Assembly: GCA_965204215.1 (NCBI GenBank)
Contig: CBDBDZ010000013.1
Location: 1,165,606 to 1,229,605, forward strand
DNA length: 64,000 nt
Origin: Pseudomonadales bacterium
GTDB lineage: Bacteria; Pseudomonadota; Gammaproteobacteria; Pseudomonadales; GM7GCV1
Direction of reading: 5' to 3'
Within the stretch, counting starts at the first letter, position 1. Each line of letters starts with the position of its first letter. Shown piece after piece: positions 7,083-53,909 of this stretch. The notes beneath the pieces were generated by a model. It did not search any database, was not told where the DNA came from, and saw only the letters and a program-made list of their open reading frames with translations. The translations under genes were made by a program, and so were the position numbers.

Positions 7083-7085
7083 TTG

Positions 7086-7676: not shown

Positions 7677-7694
7677 TACAAAGGGTGGCGATTA

Positions 7695-7919
7695 ATGGCT
7701 TTTTGGGCTAAATTGAAAAAACAAAGGCAATCTAAAATGCCACTATTGCTATGCATTGTATTTGTTGCTGCCTGTTATCACTACTTTCCAGTCGACTGGA
7801 ATGAAGTGACTCAAGTTCTGTTAGCCATATTGATGCTAATAGGGCTTGTTATAATAGCAGCAATTGTAACGGTAGCGTTTATCAATGGAATTAAAAAACT
7901 TTTTAACAAGTCTTCCTGA
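7695..7919 (+). CDS. Small membrane protein, hypothetical
   Basis: 74-aa ORF with two predicted TM helices. It fills the intergenic gap on the same strand as its neighbours. No recognisable family. Confidence 0.4.
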   Translation: MAFWAKLKKQRQSKMPLLLCIVFVAACYHYFPVDWNEVTQVLLAILMLIGLVIIAAIVTVAFINGIKKLFNKSS

Positions 7920-7931
7920 TAGTTAGAGTCA

Positions 7932-9913: not shown

Positions 9914-9915
9914 CT

Positions 9916-28843: not shown

Positions 28844-28886
28844 TAATAACCAAGATAAAAACTGCCTAGAAGCGGCGAAGATAATC

Positions 28887-34200: not shown

Positions 34201-34415
34201 TTTAGCATGATGTACGCGTAAGTTATCAACAATCAAAAAAACCTTTTTAGATGATTGCTTTATTAATTGTTTCAAAAATTTGATGAAGACCTGAGCCGTG
34301 AACTTATCGTCATAGACCATAAAATGAAGTTTTCCTTGATTAGTAATGGTTGACACCATGTTAACTCGTTCACGCTTAGCCTGAGATAATACTAAAACTG
34401 GTGTTTGCCCTTTAG

Positions 34416-35996
34416 CCCGCATATTTCATAAACCTACAAATAACTTCGAGTTTAAGGTGAAGTTGGATTATCCTGCTTTAATTTAGTTTAAGTTTGTTGA
34501 ATACGTAGCTTAATATGCTCTTTGCCCGAATTTCAGACATAACTCCCCCTTACCCCCATTGTTTGTTCTCGTGCCGGGGCAGCACTTTTTACAGTCCTAT
34601 CCAGGTTTAAGCCGGGCGACAACCAACTCGAAGATATCTTGATAAGGATATGCGCTGGGTAATAGTAAGCGTATACGCCTGGTATTGGATAAAATAACGG
34701 CAGCCACTTTGAGTAATTTAAGGCGTATGGTTCCTACTTGTAATTGGGCAAAAACAGTGCTTTTTAAGCAGTGATGACGTAGTCGCTCCATCAACACATA
34801 AGCCAGTGACGATAACAACAGTCGCCATTGATTAGGCCACCAGTGATGACAACTCGTTCGGTCAGCAAACATATCGAGTTGCTGTTCTTTAATATGGTTT
34901 TCCATTTCGCCACGAGCACAATAGAGATCCTCATAAATAGCTTGATGTTCGCCCGATAAATTCGTCACCACAAATCGCGGGTTCATGCCTTTTCCAGTAT
35001 GTTCAATTTTAGCGATGACACGGCGTTGACGCGACCATGATTGAGCTGCATACTGGATATGAGTAAACCAGCGCAAGGGGTTTCCAGATCGTTCATATTG
35101 TTCATTGACCGCATCAATCCAGGGTGACAGCATCTCTAGTATTCGGCTATTTTTTGCAATGCCCAGCACGTAACCAACATCATGACGCTCACACCAATTC
35201 ATCATTTGATGCCGACAAAACCCACTATCGCCACGTATAATGATTCTGACATTAGGCCACTGTTTACGCAACCGTTTTACCAACAAACTGAGAATCGCCC
35301 AACTGTGCTTCGCGCCATCGATATTACTGGGTCGAAGATAGCTGACCAACAGTTGTTCACCGCAGAATACATACAAGGGTAAAAAACAATAATGCCGATA
35401 ATAACCATTGTAAGAGCGACCTTCTTGCGTACCATGGACGCGATCATCAGTGGCATCGAAGTCGAGAATTAATTCCTCTGGGGCACTATCAAACGAATCA
35501 ATAAATAGGTTCAACAATACGTCATGAATGGCAATGTTTGATTGCGCAGTAAATGATTGTTCTAATCGACACAATGTCGACTGGCTTCCCAGTACTTGAT
35601 CAGCTTCCGTTGCCGTTTGTAATGCCTTATCGTGTCGCAAGGTCTCGTGATCGTTAAGGTCTTCGTAACCCATGCATAAGCTATACAAGCGTTGACGAAT
35701 CAAACTCTGCAGTGAATGTTTCACATAACTGCTGTGCCGGGTATCGGGAAATACCGATGCCACTTGCTTGCTTAGACATAAGTGTTTATCAAGCTCTCTG
35801 AGCAATAAAACACCAGCATCGCTGGTCATATCGCCACCACTAAATTGAGTTTCGATTTGACGGCGATTTAAAGGTGAAAAGTAAGTAGAAGTTGAGGTAC
35901 AATCTGTCATCGGTGCTTGGCTTATAATTTTGACTTAACACATTGAATTATAACGCATTAAACAAGCACCGTACTTTTTTTTATGAAATATGCGGG
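34416..35996 (-). mobile_element. IS1380-like element, copy B (intact)
   Basis: 1581 bp flanked by TTAG on both sides (34412-34415 and 35997-36000). The uninterrupted IS630 copy 2 carries a single TTAG at the homologous site (30583-30586), which shows a 4-bp target duplication. Confidence 0.9.
34597..35910 (-). CDS. IS1380-family-like DDE transposase
   Basis: 437 aa, identical to the product of 46665-47978. It has an N-terminal GGDMTSDAGVLLLRELD motif, GYEDLNDHETLRHD, and the C-terminal YCARGEMENHIKEQQ signature typical of IS1380/IS4-superfamily enzymes. Confidence 0.85.
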   Translation of the reverse strand: MTDCTSTSTYFSPLNRRQIETQFSGGDMTSDAGVLLLRELDKHLCLSKQVASVFPDTRHSSYVKHSLQSLIRQRLYSLCMGYEDLNDHETLRHDKALQTATEADQVLGSQSTLCRLEQSFTAQSNIAIHDVLLNLFIDSFDSAPEELILDFDATDDRVHGTQEGRSYNGYYRHYCFLPLYVFCGEQLLVSYLRPSNIDGAKHSWAILSLLVKRLRKQWPNVRIIIRGDSGFCRHQMMNWCERHDVGYVLGIAKNSRILEMLSPWIDAVNEQYERSGNPLRWFTHIQYAAQSWSRQRRVIAKIEHTGKGMNPRFVVTNLSGEHQAIYEDLYCARGEMENHIKEQQLDMFADRTSCHHWWPNQWRLLLSSLAYVLMERLRHHCLKSTVFAQLQVGTIRLKLLKVAAVILSNTRRIRLLLPSAYPYQDIFELVVARLKPG

Positions 35997-37414
35997 TTAG
36001 GAGCATAACCGCGAGGATAATGCTCTTGACTCGAAATACCTGTTTCATCACCCCAGTGAATTTCTGCATCTTCATCCTGGGCGCGTTGGTGAATTGCAGG
36101 ATAATCTTCATCAAGCCACTGTTGAACTTGAGCAGGTTGCTGTTCATAACTACGTTTGACTGGACGCTGGGGGGTAAAACCCCAACGATTAAGGTAAAGA
36201 CAGACAGTTCGATAGGCTAAATCAATTGAAAATTCATCATCAATCAATTGTTGAACTGCTTTGATTGACCACAGTGCAAAATCCAACTTTAACTGGTCTG
36301 GTGTCTTATCAATAATCAACTTCTGAATATGTTTTTCTTGCTCCGGTGTTAAGTCCCGTCCCACTCCCAATGGGCGTCCTCGTGGTTTTTCTTTGGTGAG
36401 CTTTTCGCCTGATGCTTTATATTCACGTAGCCATTCTGATACCGTGATATAGCGAAGACCAAGCTCTTCGGCTATGGCTTTTTTTGTACGGTCTCCCTTC
36501 TTGTAAAGGCGAAGACAAATTTTTTTCAATTCTAGTCGAGACTCGGGGCTAAGGGTTCTTAAATCTACTTGTTTCATGACTAGTATTATAACATAAAATT
36601 ATGATATATTCATGCAGGGTTAATAGTATCTTCATCTTGAATATGAGCACCACTTTCAGCTCTATATATTAAAACTCCATAAGGAGTACCTCCTTTTAAA
36701 GTGTATACACACCAATATAAACCATACTTGGATATTAATAATACCCAATCACCTAAAAGTTCCTGCTCTCCAACAAAGTTTTTAGCATCCCGAATAGGAG
36801 GTTCGATTATAATTGATGAATTGACTAGTGACTCAATAATAAAGTTGGGTGTATAAAAGCTAAGCCGAGATGATTTTTCTTTATCTTTAGACTTCCATTT
36901 TTCAACAAACCCTTTCGCATCCTTAGTCAAATCTGACGTTGATATAAGCCACCCTTCTGAATATCCCTCACTCTCTACTATACCCCATAATTTATATAAA
37001 ATAGATGCAGATATTGGTTCTTTTTGAGCTTTACATTCTACGAGAATTTCTTTTCCATTGATCTTATGTTTGCATAATAAATCTAATTCGGCACTTATAG
37101 TGCGTATATTTTTAATGACATCATAGTTTTGGGTCACAAGTAGTTTTTTTGCTAATTCTTCCAAAAGGTCACCTTTATCTTTGCTACTATCGCTTCTTTT
37201 ACAAGCAACTTCTATTGTTATATTTGTCATGTTTCAACCTTCTATATATTTAACAGTGATTATAGAATAACATTGAAAAATTTTTTTCAATTGACATCCA
37301 CATATCAAGGCTATAAAAACACGAAAACTACGCAAGATAGAAAAGTGTTGGTAGCCGAAAAAAATAATTTTTTACTCTTGGCTACTGTCCTAAACATCAG
37401 TACTGTAACTATCC

Positions 37415-37924
37415 ATGTTATTGGATATAGTAGAATCAAATAGTCAGAACCGTTTTGCCAATATCGACACCAAGCAATTGTCAGAGCAAGAAGAAGTTTC
37501 CGCAGTCAATTTAGCTACCCAAATACTAGAAAGCTGTATTGAGACTAAAGAGCAGTTACAAGGCTCACAAGATGTCAAAAAATACCTGAGGTTAAAAATG
37601 GATGGTTATAAGCGAGAAGTTTTCTCGGTGTTATTTTTGGATAATCATCATCGAATTATCAGCTATGAAGAAATGTTTCTAGGCACGATTAATGCCTGCC
37701 ATGTTTACTGTCGAGAAATTGTCAAAAGGGCTTTAGATTTCAACTCAAGCGCAGTGATACTCGCACATAATCACCCGTCGGGACTCACCGAACCCAGTCA
37801 AGCCGATATTCACATCACCAAAACCATCAAAGATATTCTAAATGTCATTGATGTAAGAGTAGTCGACCATTTAATCGTCGGGGAGATGGGCGTGGTTTCG
37901 ATGACAGAGATGGGTTTGGTGTGA
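37415..37924 (+). CDS. radC: RadC-like JAB/MPN-domain protein
   Basis: 169 aa with the JAMM-type motif AHNHPSGLTEPSQADIHIT. It is the short form common on mobile elements. Confidence 0.85.
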   Translation: MLLDIVESNSQNRFANIDTKQLSEQEEVSAVNLATQILESCIETKEQLQGSQDVKKYLRLKMDGYKREVFSVLFLDNHHRIISYEEMFLGTINACHVYCREIVKRALDFNSSAVILAHNHPSGLTEPSQADIHITKTIKDILNVIDVRVVDHLIVGEMGVVSMTEMGLV

Positions 37925-38072
37925 ACTTTAAAATTTTCTGAAAAAATAACTATTGCTTTACTCGGGAGCCGTTTCTAAACTGGCTGGCGGTTGGTCTCAG
38001 TCTATTTCATAACCCTATCTAAAAATAGACAAACCAACCCGTCCCGCTTTTCGTTATTATGGTGGCAAATGG

Positions 38073-38825
38073 ATGCTCGCCCCATGGATTATTGAACAAA
38101 TTGAAAAAATACCGCATAAAGTCTATGTTGAGCCTTTTGGTGGTGCCGCGAGTGTTTTGATTCGTAAAAAGCCCAGCGACATTGAAATCTACAACGACCT
38201 CAATGACGAACTGGTCAATTTTTTCAAAATTATCCGTAACCCGTACACCGCTGAACGGCTTATCAATATGCTGGAAAATACGCCGTACTCTCGGGTAGAG
38301 TTTAATACTTCCTATTTGCCCAGTAGCTTTAATCTTGAACGCGCTCGGCGATTAGCGGTTCGGGCTTTGATGGGTTTTGGGGCGACAGGGGCTAGTCGAT
38401 TAGCCAAAACTGGTTTTCGTTACCAAATATCAGGTGACCGCAGTGCCACACGTGACTGGATGACTTATCCCGAATCTCTCAGAAAAATATCCAAACGATT
38501 GAGGTCAGTGGTCATGGAAAATATCGATGCCTTGAAGCTGATTGAACGTTTTGACTCAGAGCGTACCCTCCACTATGTCGACCCGCCGTATATTTGGAAC
38601 ACTCGAAGTAAGAACGCTAAATACCAAGGCTACAAATACGAAATGAGCTATGAGGCCCATATCGAATTACTGCAACGATTAAAAAATTTGAAAGGTTCAG
38701 TACTGCTCAGTGCCTACGAACACCCGCTTTATGACCAACATTTGAAAGGTTGGAAAAAAATCACCAAACCCAGCTTTGCACTTAATGCCGCTCCAAGAAA
38801 AGAAGTATTGTGGATTAAATCATAA
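38073..38825 (+). CDS. DNA N6-adenine methyltransferase (D12 class, Dam-like); start problematic
   Basis: Catalytic DPPY motif (HYVDPPYIW). The conserved N-terminal AdoMet motif (FRYYGGKW) lies upstream of the first ATG, at 38049-38072 in frame. No ATG, GTG or TTG occurs between it and the in-frame stop at 38010. Confidence 0.7.
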   Translation: MLAPWIIEQIEKIPHKVYVEPFGGAASVLIRKKPSDIEIYNDLNDELVNFFKIIRNPYTAERLINMLENTPYSRVEFNTSYLPSSFNLERARRLAVRALMGFGATGASRLAKTGFRYQISGDRSATRDWMTYPESLRKISKRLRSVVMENIDALKLIERFDSERTLHYVDPPYIWNTRSKNAKYQGYKYEMSYEAHIELLQRLKNLKGSVLLSAYEHPLYDQHLKGWKKITKPSFALNAAPRKEVLWIKS

Positions 38826-38913
38826 ATTAGCATTAGAATAGTCATTCTCAATGTGGTACATTTTGAATTTTTGAATATGACAGTGATTTTCTTCGGGTTA
38901 GGCTAGTTTTTCT

Positions 38914-39633
38914 ATGGATAAAGATGGGCTTTCATTTTATATCCTAGTAGGACTTATTATAGCTAGCTGTTTTGCTTTAGGTTATCAAGAACTACTTCCC
39001 AACGATCCAGACGAGCGACTTATTTACGAGTTTTTCTTTTGGGTGTTGGCAGTTATTGCTGCAATAGCTTATCTTGTTCCAGGTTTTTTGATTGAAGGTG
39101 TTGAGATACTGATAGACGCCGCGAAACACTGGGGACACTCATCAAGAATCACTGAATCAAAAGAGTATCAAATATTAAATGAAACTAATGTAGCTTGTGA
39201 CATTGAGAGCTTTAGTGAATTCATTCACAAAATGGCAGCATATTCGGATATTAAATTTTCATTATTTGCCAAAGCAAAAATCCAACAGGTTTATTTTAAA
39301 CTTCAGCAACTGGAAAATTTGGTACCTGAAGTTGTTCAAAGTTTAAAAGCGGCAGAAACAGGGAAATTTGGTGATGCCGCTCAACAAATAGAAGATTTAA
39401 CTTTCACCCTCAAAAATTACCATTCATCAATAGAAGCACTGACAGTCAAGGCAAGCAGCCAGGTAAAATACTGTCGTTATGATTCAGGTGATAAAGCTTA
39501 TGCCTTTTATAATAATGATCTTCGCCAACAAACCCAACAAAAACTTATTGAAAAACTAACCATGCACAAAAATGAAATCATTCCTGACCTCGGACATCGA
39601 TTACTGCCATTGAAACGTTATCGGATAAAATAG
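38914..39633 (+). CDS. Hypothetical membrane protein (2 TM helices plus helical cytoplasmic domain)
   Basis: 239-aa ORF with TM segments FYILVGLIIASCFALGY and FFFWVLAVIAAIAYLVPGFLI. No recognisable family. Confidence 0.5.
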   Translation: MDKDGLSFYILVGLIIASCFALGYQELLPNDPDERLIYEFFFWVLAVIAAIAYLVPGFLIEGVEILIDAAKHWGHSSRITESKEYQILNETNVACDIESFSEFIHKMAAYSDIKFSLFAKAKIQQVYFKLQQLENLVPEVVQSLKAAETGKFGDAAQQIEDLTFTLKNYHSSIEALTVKASSQVKYCRYDSGDKAYAFYNNDLRQQTQQKLIEKLTMHKNEIIPDLGHRLLPLKRYRIK

Positions 39634-39668
39634 AGTCACAAGATCAAGTCAATAATCGTTTTGATAAA

Positions 39669-40019
39669 TTGCAACTTACTAATAAAAAACAAATTAATGA
39701 AGCACTAGCAAAATTTAATAAAATATCAGGTTTAGGTCTTAAGCAGCTTGCTAAGCTAGATGAGAAGTTTGAACTAATCATGGTAATGAAAGATTTGGTT
39801 TATGAACGTGCCGAAACGCAAGAATCACATAATAAGCAGTACAAACAGTTTATTGATGATACCGTCTCTGATTTGAAAAAAGATATGACCACTCTACATG
39901 AATACTTTGGTACATTGAAAACACAGAATGAAGCTCTGATGGCAGCCAATTCAGGCGATGAGCAAGGAGCTTCTATGCAACAAATGATGCTATTACTCAA
40001 AGAGTTGAAAGATGCCTGA
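39669..40019 (+). CDS. Hypothetical coiled-coil protein
   Basis: 116-aa ORF with a TTG start, so the start is uncertain. The sequence is helical and heptad-rich. Its stop overlaps the next ORF's ATG by 8 nt. Confidence 0.45.
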   Translation: MQLTNKKQINEALAKFNKISGLGLKQLAKLDEKFELIMVMKDLVYERAETQESHNKQYKQFIDDTVSDLKKDMTTLHEYFGTLKTQNEALMAANSGDEQGASMQQMMLLLKELKDA

Positions 40020-40527
40020 TTCGTTAGAAGAAAAAAAAGAACTGCTACGATTGAAAGAAGACATGAATCGCGCTCGCCTAGAAATGTCGAGCGGGTTAGC
40101 GGTAGAGCGTCAAAAATCTCGTGAACTCAGTCACCAACAGCGACAGGAACTGGCTCTACAGGGGAACCTTGAAGCCGTTAAGCTTAATCATGAACTCGAC
40201 CCCGTTATCCGTGACCGTGATTTTGCTGACCTTGTGCGGGAAGAAAATGTTCGAGTTCAATCCCTAGGGGCTGAATTATCACTACGCTGGCAATACGATA
40301 AAGCTCAAAAGAATTTAGAGCAAAAGCAAACGATGGAGCAGATGCAGGCTGAGTTAATGCGAATGACGCTGGAATCCAAGCTGGAACAGAAAAAGATGGA
40401 AAAAGAAGAAGCCCTTGAAGAAAAGCTACTGACGTTTAAAGCAGAACTGGCTCAAGAGTTTGGGCAATTATCGGAAGAACAGATAAATAAGGCAGTTGAG
40501 AAGTTAGTGAAGCAGGGGAAGGTTTGA
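40012..40527 (+). CDS. Hypothetical coiled-coil protein (Glu/Lys/Gln-rich)
   Basis: 171-aa ORF. Its TGA overlaps the TTG start of the methyltransferase by 4 nt. Confidence 0.5.
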   Translation: MPDSLEEKKELLRLKEDMNRARLEMSSGLAVERQKSRELSHQQRQELALQGNLEAVKLNHELDPVIRDRDFADLVREENVRVQSLGAELSLRWQYDKAQKNLEQKQTMEQMQAELMRMTLESKLEQKKMEKEEALEEKLLTFKAELAQEFGQLSEEQINKAVEKLVKQGKV

Positions 40528-41774
40528 ACTTTCTTGATTTGTTCGCAGGTGCTGGAGGACTATCAGAAGGCTTTATTCGAGCAGGGTTCAATCCTATTGC
40601 CCATGTTGAATCTGATATTGCAGCTTGCTTTACTCTCAAAACCCGTGAAACCTATCATTGGTTAGTATCCCAACAAGAAGAACAACACTATATTGATTAT
40701 TTATATGGAAAAATAAATCGCTCGGATTTATACAATTTTTTACCCAAAAATCATGTAGGAACTGTTATAAACACAGAAATAGGTCAGAACCAACTCGGAA
40801 ATATATTTGATAAAATTGATTCTATATTAAACGGTAAAAAAATAGACTTAATCATTGGAGGACCTCCATGCCAAGCATATTCTGTAGTTGGAAGATCACG
40901 AGATGAAAACCGTATGAAAGGTGATTCTCGAAACTTTCTATATATTTACTATGCCCAATTTTTAAAGCAATATAAGCCCAAATTCTTTGTATTTGAAAAT
41001 GTTAAAGGATTGTTGTCCGCTAAAAACACACAGAATATAAGCTATTTTGATGAAATGCGTACACTTTTTAAAGAGTGTGGTTATGAAACTGAATTCATGA
41101 CTCTTTCAGCTGAAGAATATGGAGTCCCTCAAAAGCGAAAAAGAGTAATTTTAGTAGGTAGAAGGGGTAAGAAAAAAAATTTCTATCCGGAACCCATCAA
41201 GCTATCCCCTCAAGCTTTAGTTGAAGAAATTTTTTCTGATTTACCGTCAATAAAAGCTGGAGAAGGGAGTGTTACACCATGCAAAGCTAAGTTTTATGAT
41301 AGAACTTGGTTATACGAATCAGGAATAAAAAATGACGTCTATCCAATTACTTGGCATCAATCACGTCCTAATAAGAAACAGGATTTGGAAATATATAAAA
41401 TTGCTGTTAAGTTATGGAATAAGAATAAATATAGGCTCAATTATAATAATCTCCCCAACAGATTAAAAACTCATCAACAAAGAACTTCTTTTTTAGATAG
41501 ATTTAAAGTCGTCGCATCAAATAACCATTATGCACATACTGTAGTTGCTCATATATCAAAAGATGGACATTATTATATTCATCCTGATATAAAGCAAAAT
41601 CGTTCATTAACGCCGAGAGAAGCAGCTAGATTACAAACTTTTCCTGATAGTTATTTTTTTGAAAGTATTACTGGAAAACCTGCTAGAACTCCTGCTTTTC
41701 GCCAAATAGGTAATGCAGTACCTGTTCTTCTTGCACAAAAAATAGCTGAAAAACTTATAGAGAACTGGTCATGA
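40524..41774 (+). CDS. DNA (cytosine-5)-methyltransferase
   Basis: All canonical C5-MTase motifs are present: I (LDLFAGAGGLSEGF), IV (GGPPCQAYS), VI (ENVKGL), IX (RSLTPREAARLQTFPD) and X (QIGNAVPV). Confidence 0.95.
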   Translation: MNFLDLFAGAGGLSEGFIRAGFNPIAHVESDIAACFTLKTRETYHWLVSQQEEQHYIDYLYGKINRSDLYNFLPKNHVGTVINTEIGQNQLGNIFDKIDSILNGKKIDLIIGGPPCQAYSVVGRSRDENRMKGDSRNFLYIYYAQFLKQYKPKFFVFENVKGLLSAKNTQNISYFDEMRTLFKECGYETEFMTLSAEEYGVPQKRKRVILVGRRGKKKNFYPEPIKLSPQALVEEIFSDLPSIKAGEGSVTPCKAKFYDRTWLYESGIKNDVYPITWHQSRPNKKQDLEIYKIAVKLWNKNKYRLNYNNLPNRLKTHQQRTSFLDRFKVVASNNHYAHTVVAHISKDGHYYIHPDIKQNRSLTPREAARLQTFPDSYFFESITGKPARTPAFRQIGNAVPVLLAQKIAEKLIENWS

Positions 41775-43936
41775 CTAAAAATAATGATACTTTTAAAATC
41801 AGACCTGCTGGTCGTCACATATTAACCATTGGCAGGGATTTAATTCAAGATGTCCATTCGGCTATTATTGAACTAGTCAAAAATGCTTATGATGCTGATG
41901 CAACTAGGGTCAATATTTCACTTTCGCCAAACCCTAACGAAAAAGGATATGTAATTACTATTTCTGATAATGGGCATGGAATGAGCAGAAATGTAGTAAT
42001 CAATAAATGGATGGTTCCATCTACTGACGACAAACTCAAGAGAAAGGAAAGCCCAAATGGACGAATTATGCAAGGCCGTAAGGGCATTGGACGCTACGCA
42101 GCATCCATTTTAGGAAATGACTTGTTACTAGAGACAGTAACTCCCAGTGGAGAAAAAACAAGTCTTTACATTGAATGGGATAGTTTCTCAGAGGCTGAAT
42201 TCCTTGATAATGTTGAAATATTAATTGAGTCATCTAAATCCGTGGATAAATGTGGCACGGCGCTAACAATTAATAGTGATGATTCAAGTGGGTCTGAATT
42301 TAATGAAAAAACCTTTAAAAAACTTACCGAAGAACTACAAAAACTAATCCCTCCTTTTGAAGAAATTTCTAATGAAAAATTTGAAATCAGGATTGAAATT
42401 CAAGGCTTTGGAGAGGAAACAGATAGAAATGAAATTGTTCAATCTTTTCCAATTTTCAAGCTATTTGATTATAAAATTGTAGGATCTGTAACTAATGATG
42501 GAACAGGCATACTTAAATACTCACAACAGAACGCCAAAAACTCAGTCACTGAAGAAATAGAAATTAAGGTCGCAGAAAGGACTAACTGTGGTAACTTATA
42601 TTTCGATATTCGTGTATACGATAGAGAACCTGAAGCAATCGGCGCACTTGTTGGTAGAGGTTTGAAAGATCAATTTTCAAAGCAATACGTTGGCAAGCAA
42701 GAAGCAAAAAACATTTTAGACCTACATAATGGTATTGGAGTATATAGAAATGGCTTTAGAATAAGACCACTTGGTGATTCTGACTATGATTGGTTGAAGT
42801 TAAATAAACGAAGAGTTGATAACCCGTCTATGCGTATTGGTACTAATCAGGTAATCGGCTATGTCCTTATTGAAAGAGAAGAAAGTTCACATTTAATTGA
42901 AAAAAGTGCTAGAGATGGTCTAATCAATAATTCAGCTTTTAAAATGCTTGTAGGAGCTACAAATAAAGTTATTGGAGAGCTTGAGGCAAGACGATTTAAT
43001 TACAGGTCTAAAGCAGGGTTAAGTCGAAAAACTTTAGAAGTCGAGAAAGATATAGAGAGATTATTTTCATTTGATGAATTAAAATCAGGTATTAGAAAAT
43101 CTCTGTCTAATTCTGGTATTGAAACAAAGGCAATTCAAGAAGTATTGTCGTTAATCAATCAAAGTGAAAAACAAAAAAGCGAAGCTGTAACTAATATTCG
43201 AAAGACAGTCGCTTTCTATCAAGGTCAGGCTACTCTCGGTAAAATTATGAGCATAGTATTACATGAAGGAAGACAACCCCTTAGCTATTTTAGAACACAA
43301 ACAAGAAGTTTTAATGATTGGCTTGATAAGTATAATGAGAGTGGAGACATATCAATTTTGATTAAACTAAAGGAAAAAACTAGAGGCTTGAGTGAAAATG
43401 CAATAATTTTTTCAAAACTATTTTCTCGTTTAGACCCTCTAGCAGTTGGGAAAAGGTCCCCCCAAAAATTATTAAATATTTACTCTTCACTCAAAAAAAT
43501 TGCATCAATTTTTGAAAGCAAATTAAGTGAATCAAATATCGAGCTAATTATACAAGGGGATAAAAACATTTCTGATAACTTCTGGGAACAGGATTTGTAT
43601 TCAATTTTTACGAATCTAATCGATAATAGTATCTATTGGATTTGCGAAAAGCGGTGTTCTGTCAGAAAGATAGAAATTATTATTAAACCTCAGGCTAAAC
43701 AAACCTTCTTTATAGATTATCAGGATAGCGGTCCTGGAATTGAAGCAAGTTTGATTGAAAGTCAGGTTATCTTTGAACCACATTTTTCTACTAAACCAAA
43801 TGGTATGGGGTTAGGTCTAGCTATCGCTGGTGAATCAGCCATTAGAAATGGATACGAATTAGCGGCATTAGAATCAGATTTTGGAGCATATTTTCGAATA
43901 CAACAACAAGAGGTATTCACTGATGAGTATTTGTAA
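41771..43936 (+). CDS. Dual-GHKL protein: N-terminal MORC/MutL-like ATPase (HATPase_c_3-type) fused to a histidine-kinase core (DHp plus CA)
   Basis: The N-terminal region has IELVKNAYDADATRV, ISDNGHGMS and GRKGIGRYAASILG. The C-terminal region has an H-box (IVLHEGRQPLSYF), an N-box (IFTNLIDNSIYW), G1 (QDSGPGI) and G2 (PNGMGLGLAIA). The ATG overlaps the dcm stop (ATGA). Confidence 0.8.
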   Translation: MTKNNDTFKIRPAGRHILTIGRDLIQDVHSAIIELVKNAYDADATRVNISLSPNPNEKGYVITISDNGHGMSRNVVINKWMVPSTDDKLKRKESPNGRIMQGRKGIGRYAASILGNDLLLETVTPSGEKTSLYIEWDSFSEAEFLDNVEILIESSKSVDKCGTALTINSDDSSGSEFNEKTFKKLTEELQKLIPPFEEISNEKFEIRIEIQGFGEETDRNEIVQSFPIFKLFDYKIVGSVTNDGTGILKYSQQNAKNSVTEEIEIKVAERTNCGNLYFDIRVYDREPEAIGALVGRGLKDQFSKQYVGKQEAKNILDLHNGIGVYRNGFRIRPLGDSDYDWLKLNKRRVDNPSMRIGTNQVIGYVLIEREESSHLIEKSARDGLINNSAFKMLVGATNKVIGELEARRFNYRSKAGLSRKTLEVEKDIERLFSFDELKSGIRKSLSNSGIETKAIQEVLSLINQSEKQKSEAVTNIRKTVAFYQGQATLGKIMSIVLHEGRQPLSYFRTQTRSFNDWLDKYNESGDISILIKLKEKTRGLSENAIIFSKLFSRLDPLAVGKRSPQKLLNIYSSLKKIASIFESKLSESNIELIIQGDKNISDNFWEQDLYSIFTNLIDNSIYWICEKRCSVRKIEIIIKPQAKQTFFIDYQDSGPGIEASLIESQVIFEPHFSTKPNGMGLGLAIAGESAIRNGYELAALESDFGAYFRIQQQEVFTDEYL

Positions 43937-44927
43937 AATTATTGTTATTGAAGATGTGCAGAGTCAACTTGATCTATTCTACAGTACCATTTCTGACTTG
44001 AAGGAATTGGACTCAATAGAAATAGAACTTGAATCAGCACGAAACGTAGCAGAAGCGTTCAAAAAAATTGATGGTACTTTCGACGGAGCAATAATTGATA
44101 TGAAATTAGAAAAAGAAGAGCAAGGTGGATTAACAATAATCCAAGAAATAAAAAATAGATTTTATAGACTACCAGTAATTATTCACACAGCGACTCCAGA
44201 TTCTGTTGAAATCAGAGGTTCTGTCATTAATGTTTGTAAACGAAGTGAAATCGATATCAAAGATTTAATCTTAGAGTTATATTATTTATACAAGACAGGG
44301 ATAACTCAAATAATGGGTGGAAGGGGTCAAATTAATCGTGCCTTATCAGAAGTTTTTCAGAATAACATATTGCCTAGAAGAAGTTCTTGGGTTAACTATG
44401 CAAAAAATAATCAAAATACTGAAAAAGCTCTACTTCGCTACACTCTCAATCACTTACTACATAATCTTGATGACAAAAATGAAACATTCTTTCACGATGA
44501 AGTATATCTTTTGAGCGAAGAACTTCATACTGGAAGTATAGTAAGAAGAAAAGATATTAATACCTTGTTTGTCATATTAACCCCATCGTGTGACATGATT
44601 AAAAATCAAGATGGCATTAGAAGAACTGACACAATACTTTTAGCTGAAATTGAACCTTTTGCTTTCAATGAAAACGACAGCAGGGATGAAAAAAATAGAA
44701 AGGAGTCTAAAAGGAAAAACCAAACAAATTACTGTCACTGGCTTCCTCCTAAAGAAGGTTTACTTGATAGTGGGCTTATTAACTTTAGGAAGTTATATCA
44801 CCATGATTCTGATAGTTTTGAAAATAATTTTGTGTCAAAAAATTTACAGATATCTCAACCTTTTGTTAAGGATGTAATCTCTAGATTTTCATCATATTAT
44901 GCTAGGCAAGGACAACCCCAGTTATAA
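43923..44927 (+). CDS. Receiver (REC) domain protein with uncharacterised ~200-aa C-terminal domain
   Basis: The start was set to the ATG at 43923 (MSICKIIVIEDV), which overlaps the kinase gene by 14 nt. REC residues are present: ED in IVIEDV, the phospho-acceptor D in GAIIDMKL and T in VIIHTAT. No HTH or any known output domain is recognisable after about residue 125. Confidence 0.75.
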   Translation: MSICKIIVIEDVQSQLDLFYSTISDLKELDSIEIELESARNVAEAFKKIDGTFDGAIIDMKLEKEEQGGLTIIQEIKNRFYRLPVIIHTATPDSVEIRGSVINVCKRSEIDIKDLILELYYLYKTGITQIMGGRGQINRALSEVFQNNILPRRSSWVNYAKNNQNTEKALLRYTLNHLLHNLDDKNETFFHDEVYLLSEELHTGSIVRRKDINTLFVILTPSCDMIKNQDGIRRTDTILLAEIEPFAFNENDSRDEKNRKESKRKNQTNYCHWLPPKEGLLDSGLINFRKLYHHDSDSFENNFVSKNLQISQPFVKDVISRFSSYYARQGQPQL

Positions 44928-44968
44928 TTTATATGGCACTCAAGAATACTAAAATTAGTACACGTTGA

Positions 44969-46069
44969 GTGCCCTACCAAGTCATTAAAACCATAAAAGG
45001 TCGCTCTTATTTGTATGAGCAGGAGACTTTTCGCGAGGGACAAAAGGTCAAAACGGTTAGTCGTTATATTGGTGCTTGCGACGGTGCTGGTAAAGCAACA
45101 TCCAAGGCAGTTCAACTAGCTATCACTGTACCACCTGAAGTCAAAGAAAACGATTCCCAAGCAAAATATGTTAGCGAAGAAAAGCCTCAGCCACCAAAGT
45201 TAACACTACAAATTACTACTGATTTGAAAGGCAATCATATCAGCCAGCCAGCGTTGGAACGTAACTACGATGATATTACTCATCAGATGCAGAGACAAGA
45301 GATTAAAGCCGAACATATCAAGCCTTTGGTTTTGGTAAAAGGCTTTAGTTTCAAGTACAAAAGCCTTAGGAAGCAGAACAAAATCAGTATTCCCAAAGCT
45401 AATGTCCGCGGTACTCGTGCTAAGGTCTGGCGCAGTTTTCACCTTGCCAACGCACACTCGTATCTCGATGGGTTACAGAAAAGTGATCCACAACGCTTTA
45501 CGGGTCTTCAGCAACATTTAGAGACATCCTACCGAAAGCAGAATAAAGCCATTGCCGCCCACATTATGAACAGCAACCGCAAGGACGTCTATAATATAGG
45601 GTTAACACTACATTTTATGTATTCTAAAATGGTGAGTGCTTGGACGCAGAGAAAGTTTCAAGCGGAAAACTTTGGACTGTCGAATTACGAAGACCGTTCC
45701 AGTTGGCGCGATGATGCAGCGTTGCTGATGGCAGAGATTCAAGCTGATGGCTGGCATCACTGTTACGACAAGTATCAACAAGAATTACTGCGTACTGAGC
45801 GTGCTTTGTTTCGGCAAATAACGAACTATCGCAAAGCTACTTTTCTCGACCGACTTAGTGGCAAGCGTGCCAAGCTGAAAAGAGCTTGTCTGCGAGCTAA
45901 TGCACGTCGTCGTGCGTTGTTTGAAACCTGTAATAAAATTTCGGTACTTTCATCGTTATACCACGGTTATAAGAATCAGTATCTGAATGGCAATGAACCT
46001 TTCACTCATGAACAAAACTGGCAAATAGCTCGTCAACGATACCGAAAAAAGAATAAATCAAAGCGATAG
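44969..46069 (+). CDS. Hypothetical basic protein
   Basis: 366-aa ORF with a GTG start, 41 nt after the REC gene. The N-terminus is YQVIKTIKGRSYLYEQETFREGQKVKTVSRYIG. The remainder is helical and Arg/Lys-rich, with the tail RQRYRKKNKSKR. No family recognised. Confidence 0.5.
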   Translation: MPYQVIKTIKGRSYLYEQETFREGQKVKTVSRYIGACDGAGKATSKAVQLAITVPPEVKENDSQAKYVSEEKPQPPKLTLQITTDLKGNHISQPALERNYDDITHQMQRQEIKAEHIKPLVLVKGFSFKYKSLRKQNKISIPKANVRGTRAKVWRSFHLANAHSYLDGLQKSDPQRFTGLQQHLETSYRKQNKAIAAHIMNSNRKDVYNIGLTLHFMYSKMVSAWTQRKFQAENFGLSNYEDRSSWRDDAALLMAEIQADGWHHCYDKYQQELLRTERALFRQITNYRKATFLDRLSGKRAKLKRACLRANARRRALFETCNKISVLSSLYHGYKNQYLNGNEPFTHEQNWQIARQRYRKKNKSKR

Positions 46070-46579
46070 TAAGTCTCTATCCGAAGTCATTATTCATTAC
46101 TAAATATTGGTGGAAGCACAGCGAAAAATTTGATTTACCCTGTGCTAAATTTTTTCAGATACCCGCGTTAATTTTTTTCTCCATGCCTATTTTCTATTTG
46201 ATAGACCACACCCCCCGCGACGACGGACGGTGCAGCGAGCGAGCTGCGGAGGCCGCTGGAGCGATGACGAACGAATGATGACGGGTAGGAAGAATGAGTA
46301 AGGAAGAGTGACAGTGGAATCCGAAGTTCGATTCGATGAATCGTACGGAGGATGCTAATTAGAAATGAGGTGTTAAGTTATTGTTTTATTGAATCTATTT
46401 CGCCTTTCTAGCACAATGACGGATACAAGGTCTAATACATAGGGTGCCAGCTACGTGAAAATAGATGAAGCGTTTGAAAAATCGCTCAAAACTATTCTTA
46501 AAGATTCGGGTTCAAACCGCTCATCAGGTTTGAACATCGGTAATTTTACTATTGCCGAGAGTACCGTTTTACAACTTAG

Positions 46580-48159
46580 CCCGCATATTTCATAAAAAAA
46601 GTACGGTGCTTGTTTAATGCGTTATAATTCAATGTGTTAAGTCAAAATTATAAGCCAAGCACCGATGACAGATTGTACCTCAACTTCTACTTACTTTTCA
46701 CCTTTAAATCGCCGTCAAATCGAAACTCAATTTAGTGGTGGCGATATGACCAGCGATGCTGGTGTTTTATTGCTCAGAGAGCTTGATAAACACTTATGTC
46801 TAAGCAAGCAAGTGGCATCGGTATTTCCCGATACCCGGCACAGCAGTTATGTGAAACATTCACTGCAGAGTTTGATTCGTCAACGCTTGTATAGCTTATG
46901 CATGGGTTACGAAGACCTTAACGATCACGAGACCTTGCGACACGATAAGGCATTACAAACGGCAACGGAAGCTGATCAAGTACTGGGAAGCCAGTCGACA
47001 TTGTGTCGATTAGAACAATCATTTACTGCGCAATCAAACATTGCCATTCATGACGTATTGTTGAACCTATTTATTGATTCGTTTGATAGTGCCCCAGAGG
47101 AATTAATTCTCGACTTCGATGCCACTGATGATCGCGTCCATGGTACGCAAGAAGGTCGCTCTTACAATGGTTATTATCGGCATTATTGTTTTTTACCCTT
47201 GTATGTATTCTGCGGTGAACAACTGTTGGTCAGCTATCTTCGACCCAGTAATATCGATGGCGCGAAGCACAGTTGGGCGATTCTCAGTTTGTTGGTAAAA
47301 CGGTTGCGTAAACAGTGGCCTAATGTCAGAATCATTATACGTGGCGATAGTGGGTTTTGTCGGCATCAAATGATGAATTGGTGTGAGCGTCATGATGTTG
47401 GTTACGTGCTGGGCATTGCAAAAAATAGCCGAATACTAGAGATGCTGTCACCCTGGATTGATGCGGTCAATGAACAATATGAACGATCTGGAAACCCCTT
47501 GCGCTGGTTTACTCATATCCAGTATGCAGCTCAATCATGGTCGCGTCAACGCCGTGTCATCGCTAAAATTGAACATACTGGAAAAGGCATGAACCCGCGA
47601 TTTGTGGTGACGAATTTATCGGGCGAACATCAAGCTATTTATGAGGATCTCTATTGTGCCCGTGGCGAAATGGAAAACCATATTAAAGAACAGCAACTCG
47701 ATATGTTTGCTGACCGAACGAGTTGTCATCACTGGTGGCCTAATCAATGGCGACTGTTGTTATCGTCACTGGCTTATGTGTTGATGGAGCGACTACGTCA
47801 TCACTGCTTAAAAAGCACTGTTTTTGCCCAATTACAAGTAGGAACCATACGCCTTAAATTACTCAAAGTGGCTGCCGTTATTTTATCCAATACCAGGCGT
47901 ATACGCTTACTATTACCCAGCGCATATCCTTATCAAGATATCTTCGAGTTGGTCGTCGCCCGGCTTAAACCTGGATAAGACTGTAAAAAGTGCTGCCCCG
48001 GCACGAGAACAAACAATGGGGGTAAGGGGGAGTTATGTCTGAAATTCGGGCAAAGAGCATATTAAGCTACGTATTCAACAAACTTAAACTAAATTAAAGC
48101 AGGATAATCCAACTTCACCTTAAACTCGAAGTTATTTGTAGGTTTATGAAATATGCGGG
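46580..48159 (+). mobile_element. IS1380-like element, copy C (intact)
   Basis: 1580 bp with the same ends as copies A and B. The flanking tetranucleotides differ: TTAG at 46576-46579 versus CTAG at 48160-48163. Confidence 0.9.
46665..47978 (+). CDS. IS1380-family-like DDE transposase
   Basis: 437-aa ORF identical in sequence to the product of 34597-35910. Confidence 0.85.
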   Translation: MTDCTSTSTYFSPLNRRQIETQFSGGDMTSDAGVLLLRELDKHLCLSKQVASVFPDTRHSSYVKHSLQSLIRQRLYSLCMGYEDLNDHETLRHDKALQTATEADQVLGSQSTLCRLEQSFTAQSNIAIHDVLLNLFIDSFDSAPEELILDFDATDDRVHGTQEGRSYNGYYRHYCFLPLYVFCGEQLLVSYLRPSNIDGAKHSWAILSLLVKRLRKQWPNVRIIIRGDSGFCRHQMMNWCERHDVGYVLGIAKNSRILEMLSPWIDAVNEQYERSGNPLRWFTHIQYAAQSWSRQRRVIAKIEHTGKGMNPRFVVTNLSGEHQAIYEDLYCARGEMENHIKEQQLDMFADRTSCHHWWPNQWRLLLSSLAYVLMERLRHHCLKSTVFAQLQVGTIRLKLLKVAAVILSNTRRIRLLLPSAYPYQDIFELVVARLKPG

Positions 48160-48163
48160 CTAG

Positions 48164-52397: not shown

Positions 52398-53909
52398 TAG
52401 TCAGTCCTGAAAAACATTTATCTATTTGATTATTATATATATTTTGTTACTATGTCAGTGTGATTTCGACCAGATATGTTAAAATGGTCTCTTATTTTTG
52501 GTCGAATTCATTTAAGCAATGCTCCCTCAATCACCGGTAATATCTCCCCAAACTGGCTTTTTTGATATAGCCAGCCAACTCAATCCCAATCATATGCTAC
52601 TGGCCTTGAGTCGTGAACTAGATTGGTCAAGTATCGAGTCATCGCTCAGCCCTTTATACAGTGCTAAAGGGCGCCGTGCTAAACCAATTCGACTTATGAG
52701 TGGTCTGTTAATGTTAAAGCAACTGTACAATTTGAGTGATGATTCAGTCGTTGAACAGTGGCAAATGAATCCCTACTATCAAGTATTCTGTGGAGAGACG
52801 GTGTTTCAAACATTGCCTCCTTGTCATTCAACTGAGTTGGTTAAGTTTCGTCAACGTATTGGCGAAGAGGGCGTGAAGCAACTTTTTCATAGTAGCGTAC
52901 TATTGCATGGACAGGCATCGGATGAAATCACGGTATTGGTTGATAGTAGGGTACAAGAAAAAGCGATTACTTACCCAACCGATAGTAAGTTGGCAGTCAA
53001 GATTATTAATCGGTTGAATAAGTTAGCTAAAGAAGAAGGAATTCAACAACGTCGAACCTTTGTCAAAGAAGTGAAAGAATTACGTTTATCTTGTCGTTAT
53101 TTTCGTCATGTAAAACGACGTGCTAAAGCACGTAAAGTATTAAAACGTTTAAGAACTATAGCTGGTATTTTACTGCGTGAATTACAACGAAAATTACCAG
53201 CAACAGTATTGGCGTTACAGACAGAATCGTTTGAATTGTATGAGCGTGTACTAATTCAACAACCTAAAGATAAAAACAAAGTGTACTCACTACATGAACC
53301 TGACATTTACTGTGTCGGCAAAGGCAAAGACCATAAGCCCTATGAGTATGGACGTAAAGCATCAATTGTAGCCACACAGAAAAGTCAGGTCATTGTTGGC
53401 GTAGCCAGCCATGATGAAAATGAACATGACTCAAAGAATTTGAAAGCAGCTTTAGAATCTGCTCATGAGCATCGGCAAACAACAATAGAACTAGCTGTGC
53501 TTGACCGTGGTTATCGAGGTGCAAACAAGCATGTTGATGTTGAGGTGTTATTACCCAATAAAAAGCTGAAACGAGATACGCCGTATCAATCCCAAAAGAA
53601 GCGAATATTATGTCGGCAACGTGCAGCGATTGAACCTATTATTGGGCACCTCAAACACGATTATCGATTATCAAGGAACTGGCTTAAAGGCAGTGAGGGC
53701 GATTCAATCAATTTACTGATGGCTGCTTGCGCCTGGAATTTGAAAAAATGGATGATCTTTTTCTTTGTCTATCAAAATGTTGATGTTAGCTATCCTGATA
53801 ACGCACCAAAAGCTACTTTTATTTTCATTTTTGAAAACAATATCCTCATATTCAATACTCAATCACTATAATTGTAATCCTCAAATTGCTAATTTTTCAG
53901 TACCGACTA
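52398..53909 (+). mobile_element. IS5/IS1182-family element, copy 2 (intact)
   Basis: 1512 bp with the same termini as copy 1 and an uninterrupted transposase gene. Confidence 0.9.
52519..53871 (+). CDS. IS5/IS1182-family transposase (DUF772 N-domain plus DDE)
   Basis: 450 aa with the N-terminal InsH-type region (GRRAKPIRLMSGLLMLKQLYNLSDDSVVEQWQMNPYYQVFCG) and the DDE region (VLVDSRVQEKAITYPTD ... AVLDRGYRG ... AAIEPIIGHLK). Confidence 0.9.
   Translation: MLPQSPVISPQTGFFDIASQLNPNHMLLALSRELDWSSIESSLSPLYSAKGRRAKPIRLMSGLLMLKQLYNLSDDSVVEQWQMNPYYQVFCGETVFQTLPPCHSTELVKFRQRIGEEGVKQLFHSSVLLHGQASDEITVLVDSRVQEKAITYPTDSKLAVKIINRLNKLAKEEGIQQRRTFVKEVKELRLSCRYFRHVKRRAKARKVLKRLRTIAGILLRELQRKLPATVLALQTESFELYERVLIQQPKDKNKVYSLHEPDIYCVGKGKDHKPYEYGRKASIVATQKSQVIVGVASHDENEHDSKNLKAALESAHEHRQTTIELAVLDRGYRGANKHVDVEVLLPNKKLKRDTPYQSQKKRILCRQRAAIEPIIGHLKHDYRLSRNWLKGSEGDSINLLMAACAWNLKKWMIFFFVYQNVDVSYPDNAPKATFIFIFENNILIFNTQSL

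Follow-up and report, generated by a model that had tools for sequence, protein, structure and literature searches.

Layout and products of the locus

Five ORFs of the same strand, first proposed on inspection of the sequence, were confirmed at positions 39669-44927 (+) of the window (the whole stretch of 64,000 nt that was analysed), where they overlap by 8, 4, 4 and 14 nt (Table 1). The 8-nt junction reads ATGCCTGA and the two 4-nt junctions read TTGA and ATGA, the last one being that of 14 nt. An alternative TTG start at position 43881 would extend the receiver protein to 348 aa; the ATG at 43923 is favoured because homologues begin at the same position. Consensus scans for promoters and terminators in the locus region gave scores no better than those of shuffled sequence, so that the operon boundaries are not fixed by them.

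Table 1. Genes, domains and predicted functional residues of the locus (positions in the window).
Feature	Position	Strand	Remarks
Coiled-coil ORF	39669-40019	+	116 aa, TTG start; co-oriented with and overlapping the next gene
Coiled-coil ORF	40012-40527	+	171 aa; 4-nt overlap with the methylase start
C5 cytosine DNA methyltransferase	40524-41774	+	416 aa, TTG start; modification component of the triad
ParaMORC-like GHKL ATPase/histidine-kinase fusion	41771-43936	+	721 aa, soluble; presumed sensor and kinase
MORC/MutL-type GHKL ATP-binding domain, N-terminal	41852-42229	+	residues 28-153, HATPase_c_3; Bergerat motifs intact
His498 codon, predicted phospho-acceptor of the H-box IVLHEGRQPL	43262-43264	+	from conservation
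Catalytic ATP-binding (CA) domain	43589-43864	+	residues 607-698, HATPase_c; N and G1 boxes conserved
Response-regulator-like receiver protein	43923-44927	+	334 aa from ATG
Divergent REC domain	43923-44273	+	Response_reg 1e-5; Asp59 codon 44097-44099
Conserved helical hairpin between REC and barrel	44274-44492	+	residues 118-190; motifs TG.T.IMGGRG, ALLRYTLNHL
Beta-barrel and terminal helix, predicted MazF/PemK-like fold, presumed effector	44493-44927	+	residues 191-334

The third ORF encodes a C5 methylase of the Dcm type, as the sequence-only reading had it (Pfam DNA_methylase, 2e-61; TIGR00675 dcm, 1.7e-51), which, judging from its enzyme family, would mark the host DNA. In a PADLOC search, a check proposed along with that reading, the methylase matched the DrmMII model over its full length (555 bits) and the N-terminus of the kinase matched REase_II (7e-10), whereas the Detocs models found no match among the genes of 36610-46069.

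The assignment of the 721-aa protein to a MORC-type GHKL ATPase joined to a complete kinase core was confirmed. Pfam recognises HATPase_c_3 near its N-terminus (2.5e-22) and HATPase_c towards its end (1.4e-17), and the DHp and CA kinase core of FixL aligns with residues 473-710. Among 77 homologues at least 98% conservation was found for the N-terminal Bergerat motifs (ELVKNAYDA, DNGHGM and GRKGIGRY), for His498 and Glu499, and for the N (FTNLIDNS), G1 (DSGPG) and G2 boxes of the kinase. The N-terminus further resembles restriction enzymes of the BbrUII/HgiDII family (NCBIfam, 1e-16), and its GHKL domain gave weak matches to HtpG and MORC3 in the PDB. Neither the kinase core nor the receiver has a model in PADLOC v2, hence no defence role is catalogued for either.

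The receiver domain had been described as canonical, which proved too strong, since its Pfam Response_reg match (26 bits) lies under the cut-off of 30.2. Its AlphaFold2 model superposes on the receivers of PhoB, PhoP and DrrD (Foldseek TM 0.75-0.79, target-normalised), and 54 homologues all share residues E10, D11, D54, D59 and T89; the REC domain is real but divergent. It is followed by a hairpin with modelled helices at 136-159 and 163-183, in which G126, G133, G135, R172 and H177 are invariant among homologues.

Conservation of a three-gene unit

The linkage of methylase, kinase and receiver genes claimed by the sequence-only reading was borne out by the neighbourhoods of 84 related loci, drawn from one archaeon as well as many phyla. 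In 83 of them the kinase gene has the receiver gene as its neighbour, the two mostly overlapping by 4 nt, and a methylase 57-69% identical to the window copy lies immediately upstream of the kinase in 56. We conclude that the conserved unit is formed by the last three ORFs only (40524-44927) and not by all five. This triad belongs to the HEF_HK/Response_reg_2 family, a widespread three-gene module that was described computationally in 2021 (Bellieny-Rabelo, Pretorius and Moleleki; PMC8011034), where the kinase-like and receiver-like genes were 91.6% linked in 644 regions, C5 methylases were noted upstream and Vsr downstream of the pair in many phyla, the relation to paraMORCs was drawn and a role in regulating restriction-modification (R-M) systems was speculated. 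The triad is thus not an undescribed combination, as had first been suggested, because the same pair with C5 methylases was reported there; experimental data on a member of the family were not found in the literature. As in that family, we find a soluble protein with HATPase_c_3, DHp (His-Glu) and HATPase_c, a neighbouring divergent receiver protein free of other Pfam domains and a C5 methylase upstream. The window differs in that it holds no Vsr gene, often present downstream in the family, and in that the triad stands behind an unrelated coiled-coil pair.

The coiled-coil genes had been counted as members of the system. None of the 84 loci holds a homologue of the 116-aa or the 171-aa protein, and among 5.8 billion proteins the 171-aa protein has one relative (63% identity), whose gene shares the same 8-nt overlap with an upstream gene and is followed by an SLFN_AlbA_2 gene instead of a methylase; the 116-aa protein is 41% identical to the product of that upstream gene. 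This absence and the different company of the only relative place the two genes outside the triad system. One five-gene system with the coiled-coil proteins as functional partners, possibly effectors, would account for the start and stop codons that overlap at each junction in this genome; the overlaps 5' of the methylase are not conserved in other loci, and given the distribution just described we regard such a system as extremely improbable. The surrounding island was recognised in part: radC and dam are present and look, together with ORF366, like the remnant of a conjugative element, whereas the supposed nuclease-NTPase is a STAND gene disrupted by nested IS insertions. The triad is probably cargo of this IS-ridden remnant, where it has come to lie behind an unrelated coiled-coil pair.

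Elsewhere too the triad is co-inherited and tied to R-M and mobile or defence regions, in keeping with the original proposal. The kinase-receiver pair is found on conjugative plasmids, and distant plasmid versions retain the linkage to dcm in altered gene order (dcm is convergent in a Campylobacter plasmid and downstream in a Bacillus plasmid). R-M genes of types I, II and III all occur beside the pair; one subclade, first recognised in this analysis, lacks a C5 methylase directly upstream and lies mostly among type I genes, and in the two loci examined along their whole length (L001 and L002) the pair is embedded in a type I operon. The window copy is the most divergent member seen (receiver at most 46% and kinase at most 56% identical) and lacks about 15 C-terminal residues that most homologues have. 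In 35 of the 60 methylase-containing loci no other recurrent R-M gene except Vsr was found within three genes, so that any restricting or toxic activity should lie in the kinase-receiver pair itself. It is newly noted here that by pairwise identity the target-recognition region of the methylase (residues 215-355; mean 63%) is conserved to the same degree as the catalytic core (65%), as would suit a sensor co-adapted to a single, invariable target.

The gene found most often directly 3' of the receiver is that for Vsr (33/67; 41 loci), and E. coli MutL is known to stimulate Vsr. Both points speak for an accessory role in very-short-patch repair or epigenetic maintenance, in which the MutL-like ATPase, Dcm and Vsr would act on T:G mismatches under a phosphorelay checkpoint. 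Such mismatches are the product of 5-methylcytosine deamination. We hold this role to be very unlikely, because Vsr accompanies many C5 methylases irrespective of their partners and is missing from the window, the pair also occurs among type I R-M genes without Dcm or Vsr, and a toxin-like output carried on conjugative plasmids is hard to fit to repair.

A predicted MazF-like barrel at the end of the receiver protein

The receiver tail had been thought to lack a recognisable fold. AlphaFold2 predicts for it a barrel with a terminal helix (barrel pLDDT ~85-95), and where an ordinary DNA-binding output had been named as the contrary case, Foldseek on this model gave a MazF-like barrel instead. 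The top 37 PDB matches were all MazF-family toxins (best E a modest 2e-3; TM 0.55-0.74, target-normalised), the 38th was CptN, and BFVD matches were led by PemK-like proteins. The domain occurs almost exclusively behind REC (504 clusters, nearly all at residues ~118-345). The order of secondary-structure elements is that of MazF, and the local pattern TGSIV...FVVLSPACD is similar to GD(I/V)...RPxVV(L/I)S of MazF. A sequence link to MazF was found neither by HMM search of PDB sequences nor by Pfam scan, and hhalign gave no match to a small, approximate MazF alignment. At the level of fold, the tail is thus predicted to consist of a helical hairpin and, after it, a barrel like that of MazF/PemK, an assignment that is new here: PMC8011034, a purely computational study, left the tail unassigned, and a published assignment was not found in the literature. 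MazF has a catalytic Arg-Pro ahead of strand 2 which the tail lacks, so that an RNase activity of the tail is putative.

The MazF-like fold also includes the gyrase poison CcdB, and the tail could be a non-enzymatic binding module. With the missing catalytic Arg and the variety of R-M types beside the pair, this agrees with a regulatory two-component pair that tunes neighbouring R-M systems, its tail being not a toxin but a protein-binding adaptor modulating the methylase or restriction enzyme. We consider this unlikely, since in the 35 methylase loci mentioned above there is nothing nearby to regulate but the methylase and Vsr, and since the tail keeps E193, Y195, G204, P221, C223, D224, K316, D317, R328, Q329, G330 and P332 invariant even in plasmid homologues of 25-29% identity; so many unchanging polar residues are out of the ordinary and point to catalysis or to a target of high specificity.

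A true restriction system could likewise be imagined, in which the tail would be a novel DNA endonuclease, licensed by phosphorylation on unmethylated DNA located by a GHKL clamp. The same N-terminal GHKL module heads HgiDII/BbrUII-type restriction enzymes, likewise paired with C5 methylases, and the triad is self-contained, with a dedicated methylase of conserved recognition region. Against this, sequence profiles found no PD-(D/E)xK, HNH, GIY-YIG or PLD signature, in agreement with the earlier statement that no classical nuclease is detectable, and a RE_XamI match in 3 of 56 members (E 0.018) was rejected as noise. As the characterised enzymatic members of the predicted MazF-like fold are RNases, we judge an endonuclease rather improbable. 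The likeliest effector of the module remains the receiver C-terminal domain, one of the places where the sequence-only reading had looked for it.

Proposed mechanism and known relatives

We propose, with about an even chance of being right, a phosphorelay under the control of methylation by which a toxin-like effector is turned on, for defence or addiction. The GHKL module would monitor DNA for an unmethylated target, or the state of a partner R-M system, and would then control autophosphorylation at His498. Phosphotransfer to Asp59 would alter the receiver and relieve the toxin-like barrel of the hairpin's inhibition, the predicted barrel and hairpin taking the place of a DNA-binding domain. 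The freed effector would arrest growth, most likely through MazF-like RNA cleavage. Receiver phosphorylation could either activate or silence the effector. If the proposal is correct, phage-infected cells would undergo abortive infection or cells losing the methylase would be killed (addiction), and the R arm of R-M would in effect be replaced by a kinase-gated toxin. Overall, the initial interpretation of the locus is partly supported.

ParaMORCs are found again and again in association with R-M systems (Iyer, Abhiman and Aravind 2008, PMC2292703). The N-terminal MORC/MutL-type GHKL module beside cytosine methylases and Vsr is shared with them and with HgiDII/BbrUII; there the partner of GHKL, whether in the same polypeptide or separate, is a nuclease or helicase, whereas the window protein joins GHKL to a histidine-kinase core and would signal to a separate receiver protein. 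ParaMORC-HEPN fusions in R-M loci have been proposed as PrrC/RloC analogues acting in second-line defence (PMC3710099). With PrrC/EcoprrI, RloC and paraMORC-HEPN (Ymh) the triad would have in common an ATPase-coupled latent RNA-targeting toxin in an R-M locus. Their effector is HEPN, coupled by fusion, whereas that of the triad is predicted to be MazF-like and coupled by His-Asp phosphotransfer, and no link to tRNA cleavage is known for it. In the prr operon, prrC lies between hsdS and hsdR, the very position occupied by the pair in L001 and L002.

That an antiphage effector can be driven by a phosphorelay is known from Detocs. Its DtcABC proteins likewise pair a histidine kinase with a receiver-effector protein for defence rather than transcription; they differ in a buffering Hpt protein and an ATP-depleting nucleoside-phosphorylase effector, and have neither methylase nor GHKL/MORC sensor. 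The likeness to DISARM class 2 lies in the full-length DrmMII match, and no other gene of 36610-46069 matched a Drm model of PADLOC. In MADS, too, methylation goes together with genes annotated as kinases, in an eight-gene operon with an N6 methylase and a specificity subunit. Finally, the predicted barrel and C-terminal helix resemble MazF/PemK/Kid, CcdB and ToxN/CptN; in comparison with MazF the tail carries an insertion of 20-30 residues, and whereas MazF toxins are paired with an antitoxin gene, the receiver barrel is fused behind REC and the hairpin.

Linkage of the methylase, kinase and receiver genes

The five co-oriented ORFs of the locus overlap at their four junctions by 8, 4, 4 and 14 nt (ATGCCTGA, TTGA, ATGA and ATGAGTATTTGTAA), and ORF coordinates and junction sequences together confirm the arrangement originally read from the sequence. 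TTG serves as the start codon in two of the five; for the receiver-protein gene an alternative TTG start lies at 43881 and the starts of its homologues coincide with the ATG at 43923. Promoter and terminator scans of the locus were uninformative. Pfam bore out the third gene as a C5 methylase.

Features of the locus, its surroundings and two distant triads
Feature	Coordinates	Strand	Remarks
Coiled-coil ORF, 116 aa	39669-40019	same for all five genes of the locus	
Coiled-coil ORF, 171 aa	40012-40527	same for all five genes of the locus	
C5 methylase gene	40524-41774	same for all five genes of the locus	Pfam 2e-61
Kinase gene	41771-43936	same for all five genes of the locus	HATPase_c_3 and HATPase_c
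Receiver-protein gene	43923-44927	same for all five genes of the locus	divergent REC domain and tail
ORF366	44969-46069		32-member family, no Pfam domain
IS copies, 1569 nt	34413-35981, 46594-48162	inverted to each other	100% identical
Mrr_cat/NA-iREase1 ORF	31781-33907	(-)	
nSTAND1/NACHT NTPase ORF	36610-37230	(-)	
DUF772/DDE_Tnp_1 transposase genes	24682-25893, 52519-53871		
IS630-like fragments	28000-28853, 30091-30940, 33917-34415, 35997-36355	direct and inverted	near-identical
Campylobacter distant triad (L089)	4795-9248 of Campylobacter coli plasmid NZ_CP109818.1		receiver 25-29% identical
Bacillus distant triad (L090)	4768-10736 of Bacillus plasmid CP095861.1		dcm two genes downstream

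A receiver-protein alignment was scanned against one genome per species and returned 169 relatives, from which 80 loci were kept and combined with four loci from metagenome contigs. The resulting 84 loci include Poribacteria, Chloroflexota, Bacteroidota, Desulfobacterota, Chlorobiaceae, Yersinia and one Methanoperedenaceae archaeon, and all their ORFs were compared with the window proteins by BLASTP. The kinase was found in 83 of the 84, nearly always directly 5' of the receiver gene and overlapping it by 4 nt (14 nt in the window), and in 56 the gene immediately upstream of it encoded a methylase 57-69% identical to that of the window, so that the linkage asked about for the kinase homologues is kept. 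The same search found the coiled-coil pair, a 239-aa membrane protein, ORF366, radC, dam and the Mrr-like gene in none of the 84 loci. Only methylase, kinase and receiver are thus conserved, and the five-gene unit put forward in the sequence-only reading did not hold: the five genes are juxtaposed only locally. That all five genes form one system, as their uninterrupted overlaps might be taken to indicate, is very improbable given the absence of the coiled-coil genes from every related locus.

The 171-aa coiled-coil protein has a single relative among 5.8 billion proteins. On its contig (L085, 2-962) the relative's gene again overlaps a homologue of the 116-aa ORF (41% identity) by 8 nt, and the pair is followed by an SLFN_AlbA_2 gene, with no methylase. 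With a different gene downstream in L085, the coiled-coil pair is thus an independent cassette, and we note that in the window (39669-40527) it may be a small cassette travelling with varied defence-like cargo.

The first gene 3' of the receiver gene (n = 67) encoded Vsr in 33 cases, a type III Mod methylase in 10 and type I HsdR in five. The kinase and receiver pair could accordingly be pictured as an accessory of Vsr repair; Vsr was not found in the whole window, and we consider this reading quite improbable. Setting Vsr aside, 35 of the 60 methylase-bearing loci have no other recurrent restriction-modification (R-M) gene within three genes, which makes the triad self-contained. Where no C5 methylase is adjacent, the loci mostly fall in one kinase subclade (11 of 12 members), most of which sits among type I R-M genes; in L001 and L002, two such loci whose full gene order was read, hsdS and hsdR flank the pair. 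Among loci embedded in type I genes we also observed that a conserved protein of 332-513 aa without Pfam domain precedes the kinase in six (L001 6572-7597 and relatives), and that an AAA_15/AAA_21 ATPase and a DUF4276 protein can separate the receiver gene from hsdR (L002 9104-10940).

Distant relatives (25-30% identity) keep the kinase architecture and the linkage to dcm in differing gene orders. The family is widespread, occurring in many bacterial phyla, in one archaeon and on 39 Campylobacter plasmid records, the majority of which are typed as conjugative; dcm is convergent on the receiver gene in the Campylobacter triads. On an Enterobacter mori plasmid (L088, NZ_CP119171.1, 4852-8074) the pair is found without an intact upstream methylase ORF, with a gene for an AbiJ-NTD4 domain nearby. 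Neither the locus nor the first 12 kb of the window had a Megablast match among plasmids, and a Yersinia kinase-receiver DNA query found none among complete E. coli genomes.

Across 57 loci the target-recognition region of the methylase is as conserved as the catalytic core (63% versus 65% mean pairwise identity), which is unusual for R-M methylases. This suggests that the triad methylases may share one target and be co-adapted with the sensor.

Kinase, receiver domain and predicted fold of the tail

The claim of a GHKL ATPase joined to a kinase core in the fourth gene was upheld. Pfam places HATPase_c_3 at the N-terminus of the protein and HATPase_c at its C-terminus, residues 473-710 align with the DHp and CA core of FixL, and the alignment of 77 homologues shows conservation of His498-Glu499, of the Bergerat motifs in the N-terminal GHKL module and of the N, G1 and G2 boxes in the C-terminal one. 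Hydrophobic segments were not visible on inspection of the sequence. The GHKL head resembles that of HgiDII/BbrUII-type restriction enzymes, the sole restriction-enzyme similarity in the triad, and this suggests that the kinase may descend from a restriction enzyme of the GHKL-nuclease type in which a kinase core took the place of the nuclease. The triad proteins matched no nuclease family, in keeping with what had been noted before.

The receiver domain, earlier called canonical, is real but divergent: at 26 bits it falls below the Pfam cut-off of 30.2, whereas its (beta-alpha)5 fold superposes on the receivers of PhoB, PhoP and DrrD, and its acidic pair (E10, D11), D54, phospho-acceptor D59 and T89 are invariant in 54 homologues. 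The protein has no other known Pfam domain, and scans with PADLOC, PHROGs and NCBIfam assigned neither the kinase core nor the receiver to a named system.

Over its full length the receiver protein has 46 invariant positions (54 sequences, about 40% identity), and in the strongly conserved tail, the residues after REC, 26 positions stay invariant when the 25-29% identical plasmid homologues are added. This tail had been described as lacking a recognisable fold, a view that structure prediction overturned. AlphaFold2 models were made of the whole receiver protein and of residues 118-334 alone (mean pLDDT 79; about 85-95 in the barrel), and show two long helices forming a hairpin, then a small beta-barrel and a C-terminal helix. 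When the tail model was compared with the PDB by Foldseek, the top 37 hits were exclusively MazF-family toxins and rank 38 was CptN (best E 2e-3, probability about 1.0 for the best hits, target-normalised TM 0.55-0.74); among BFVD viral models PemK-like proteins ranked first. MazF is built of strand, strand, short helix, strand, strand, long hairpin, strand and C-terminal helix, and we take the order of elements in the tail to be the same. By sequence, neither a PDB HMM search nor a Pfam scan of each member (E up to 10) related the tail to MazF, and hhalign gave a probability of 0.3%, a weak test with a MazF alignment of only five sequences. The catalytic Arg-Pro that precedes strand 2 in MazF is absent from all aligned members. 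The assignment of the tail to a MazF-like barrel with C-terminal helix is therefore moderately secure as a predicted fold, but an enzymatic activity is not. The tail could also be a new kind of DNA endonuclease; with only MazF-family toxins among the 37 best structural matches and no triad protein assigned to a nuclease family, we hold this to be unlikely.

The tail domain forms 504 clusters at 50% identity among 1.84 billion representative proteins and nearly always stands behind the receiver, at residues ~118-345. One exception, P0187 (571 aa), fuses the N-terminal half of a C5 methylase directly to the tail domain, with no kinase or REC between; it may have arisen by deletion, result from chimeric assembly or represent a genuine short-circuit variant. 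The surroundings of the pair contain no conserved antitoxin gene, and we infer that the hairpin and REC may play this role.

The most likely mechanism for the triad is a kinase-gated toxin. The methylase would mark self DNA, and the GHKL module would sense unmethylated target DNA or the state of a partner R-M system. The kinase core would then autophosphorylate on His498 and pass the phosphate to Asp59 of the receiver, which would free the MazF-like barrel from the hairpin. Growth arrest would follow, most plausibly by RNA cleavage, and would result in abortive infection or post-segregational killing. We tentatively propose that the triad could be an R-M system with its restriction arm replaced, in which a MORC-like clamp reads C5 methylation at a fixed target and His-Asp phosphotransfer frees a MazF-fold toxin, leading to abortive infection or addiction with no cutting of DNA; the tail would represent a new branch of the MazF/CcdB fold that is gated by a kinase. 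Should the toxin-like output be real, an ATPase of the MORC type, which is related to the chromatin silencers of eukaryotes, would turn a DNA-state signal into a cellular response via a phosphorelay, and a kinase-gated toxin would join the methylation-based means by which bacteria tell self from non-self.

A decayed mobile element around the locus

The two identical IS copies, each encoding a 437-aa DDE_Tnp_1_4 transposase, bracket a 10.6-kb segment (35982-46593) that contains the locus, and their terminal inverted repeats AGCCCGCATATTTCATA reach about 17 nt past the identical stretch. A composite transposon was considered and rejected: the left copy represents a simple insertion that split an IS630-like element, and because the halves of the latter (33952-34422 and 35981-36577) keep their orientation, the bracketed segment has neither moved nor been inverted as a whole. 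The split element lies between the Mrr_cat/NA-iREase1 and nSTAND1/NACHT ORFs, which look like halves of one STAND-type defence gene, a join read from gene order only. The neighbouring 'nuclease-NTPase' noticed earlier comprises these two parts, apparently as a STAND gene that nested IS insertions have disrupted. Members of the ORF366 family (contigs L086 and L087) stand among the DUF87 ATPase, TraG coupling protein, relaxase, RadC and resolvases of conjugative elements. The stretch from ~24.6 to 54 kb is unusually IS-dense, with housekeeping genes on both flanks of the window. From the island genes, the ISs and these flanks we therefore conclude that the triad is cargo of a decayed mobile element in an IS-rich chromosomal island.

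Relation to the published family and to known systems

The combination had been thought undescribed, but PMC8011034 (Genome Biol Evol 2021) reports the same pair with C5 methylases upstream. This computational study describes soluble HATPase_c_3, DHp-like and HATPase_c proteins beside receiver-like proteins without other known domain (linkage 91.6%; 644 regions in 628 strains), with Vsr downstream, frequently though not obligatorily, and R-M domains enriched nearby; its authors propose descent from paraMORCs, name the Pfam families PF19191 (HEF_HK) and PF19192 (Response_reg_2) and offer only speculation on R-M regulation. Because a Pfam scan of the window proteins and 54 homologues returned neither family, the models being probably absent from the release used, membership was judged on the features that define the family in PMC8011034. 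The window matches every one except the optional Vsr: its kinase has HATPase_c_3, a His-acidic H-box and a C-terminal HATPase_c, its pair overlaps by 14 nt where a distance within three genes suffices, and its upstream C5 methylase is present and orthologous. To judge from these shared features, the locus is a divergent new member of the published family. The first interpretation is partly supported and the observation behind it confirmed. That the pair merely regulates R-M, with no toxin activity, would agree with that speculation and with the loci embedded among type I genes; set against the self-contained triads and the unusually many invariant polar residues of the tail, we find it conceivable but doubtful.

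What the present analysis adds is the fold assignment of the tail, the self-containment of the triad, the recognition region conserved across phyla, the kinase subclade that lacks a neighbouring C5 methylase and lies mostly among type I R-M genes, and the exclusion of the coiled-coil genes; the window locus itself, as one divergent member, is of more modest practical weight. In the part of the literature covered, we found neither an experimental follow-up of the family nor a mechanism proposed for it, and no receiver-MazF effector or HATPase_c_3 protein with a response regulator in phage defence.

Among named systems, Detocs consists of the hybrid kinase DtcA, the Hpt buffer DtcB and the REC-PNP effector DtcC; it was ruled out, as no protein had a PADLOC match to it and the locus has no Hpt-only gene and no PNP domain. 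The best PADLOC match of the methylase is the DrmMII model of DISARM (555 bits, full length), and triad methylases could be mistaken for DISARM components in automated annotation. DISARM class 2 was rejected, since drmA, drmB and drmC are unmatched and only the methylase of ten tested genes (36610-46069) matches a DISARM model. A classical type II R-M system was excluded by the lack of a recognisable endonuclease partner in the triad, MADS by its N6 methylase with specificity subunit and its eight-gene operon, and WonAB and VcSduA (V. cholerae) by their different architecture. The tail shares with MazF, Kid and CcdB the barrel-plus-C-terminal-helix fold, by prediction only, and differs from MazF/PemK toxins in having neither profile similarity nor the catalytic Arg before strand 2. 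For a toxin in an R-M locus PrrC/RloC provide a precedent, and prrC lies between hsdS and hsdR in the prr operon, as does the pair in L001 and L002. ParaMORC-HEPN fusions have likewise been proposed as PrrC/RloC analogues (PMC3710099).
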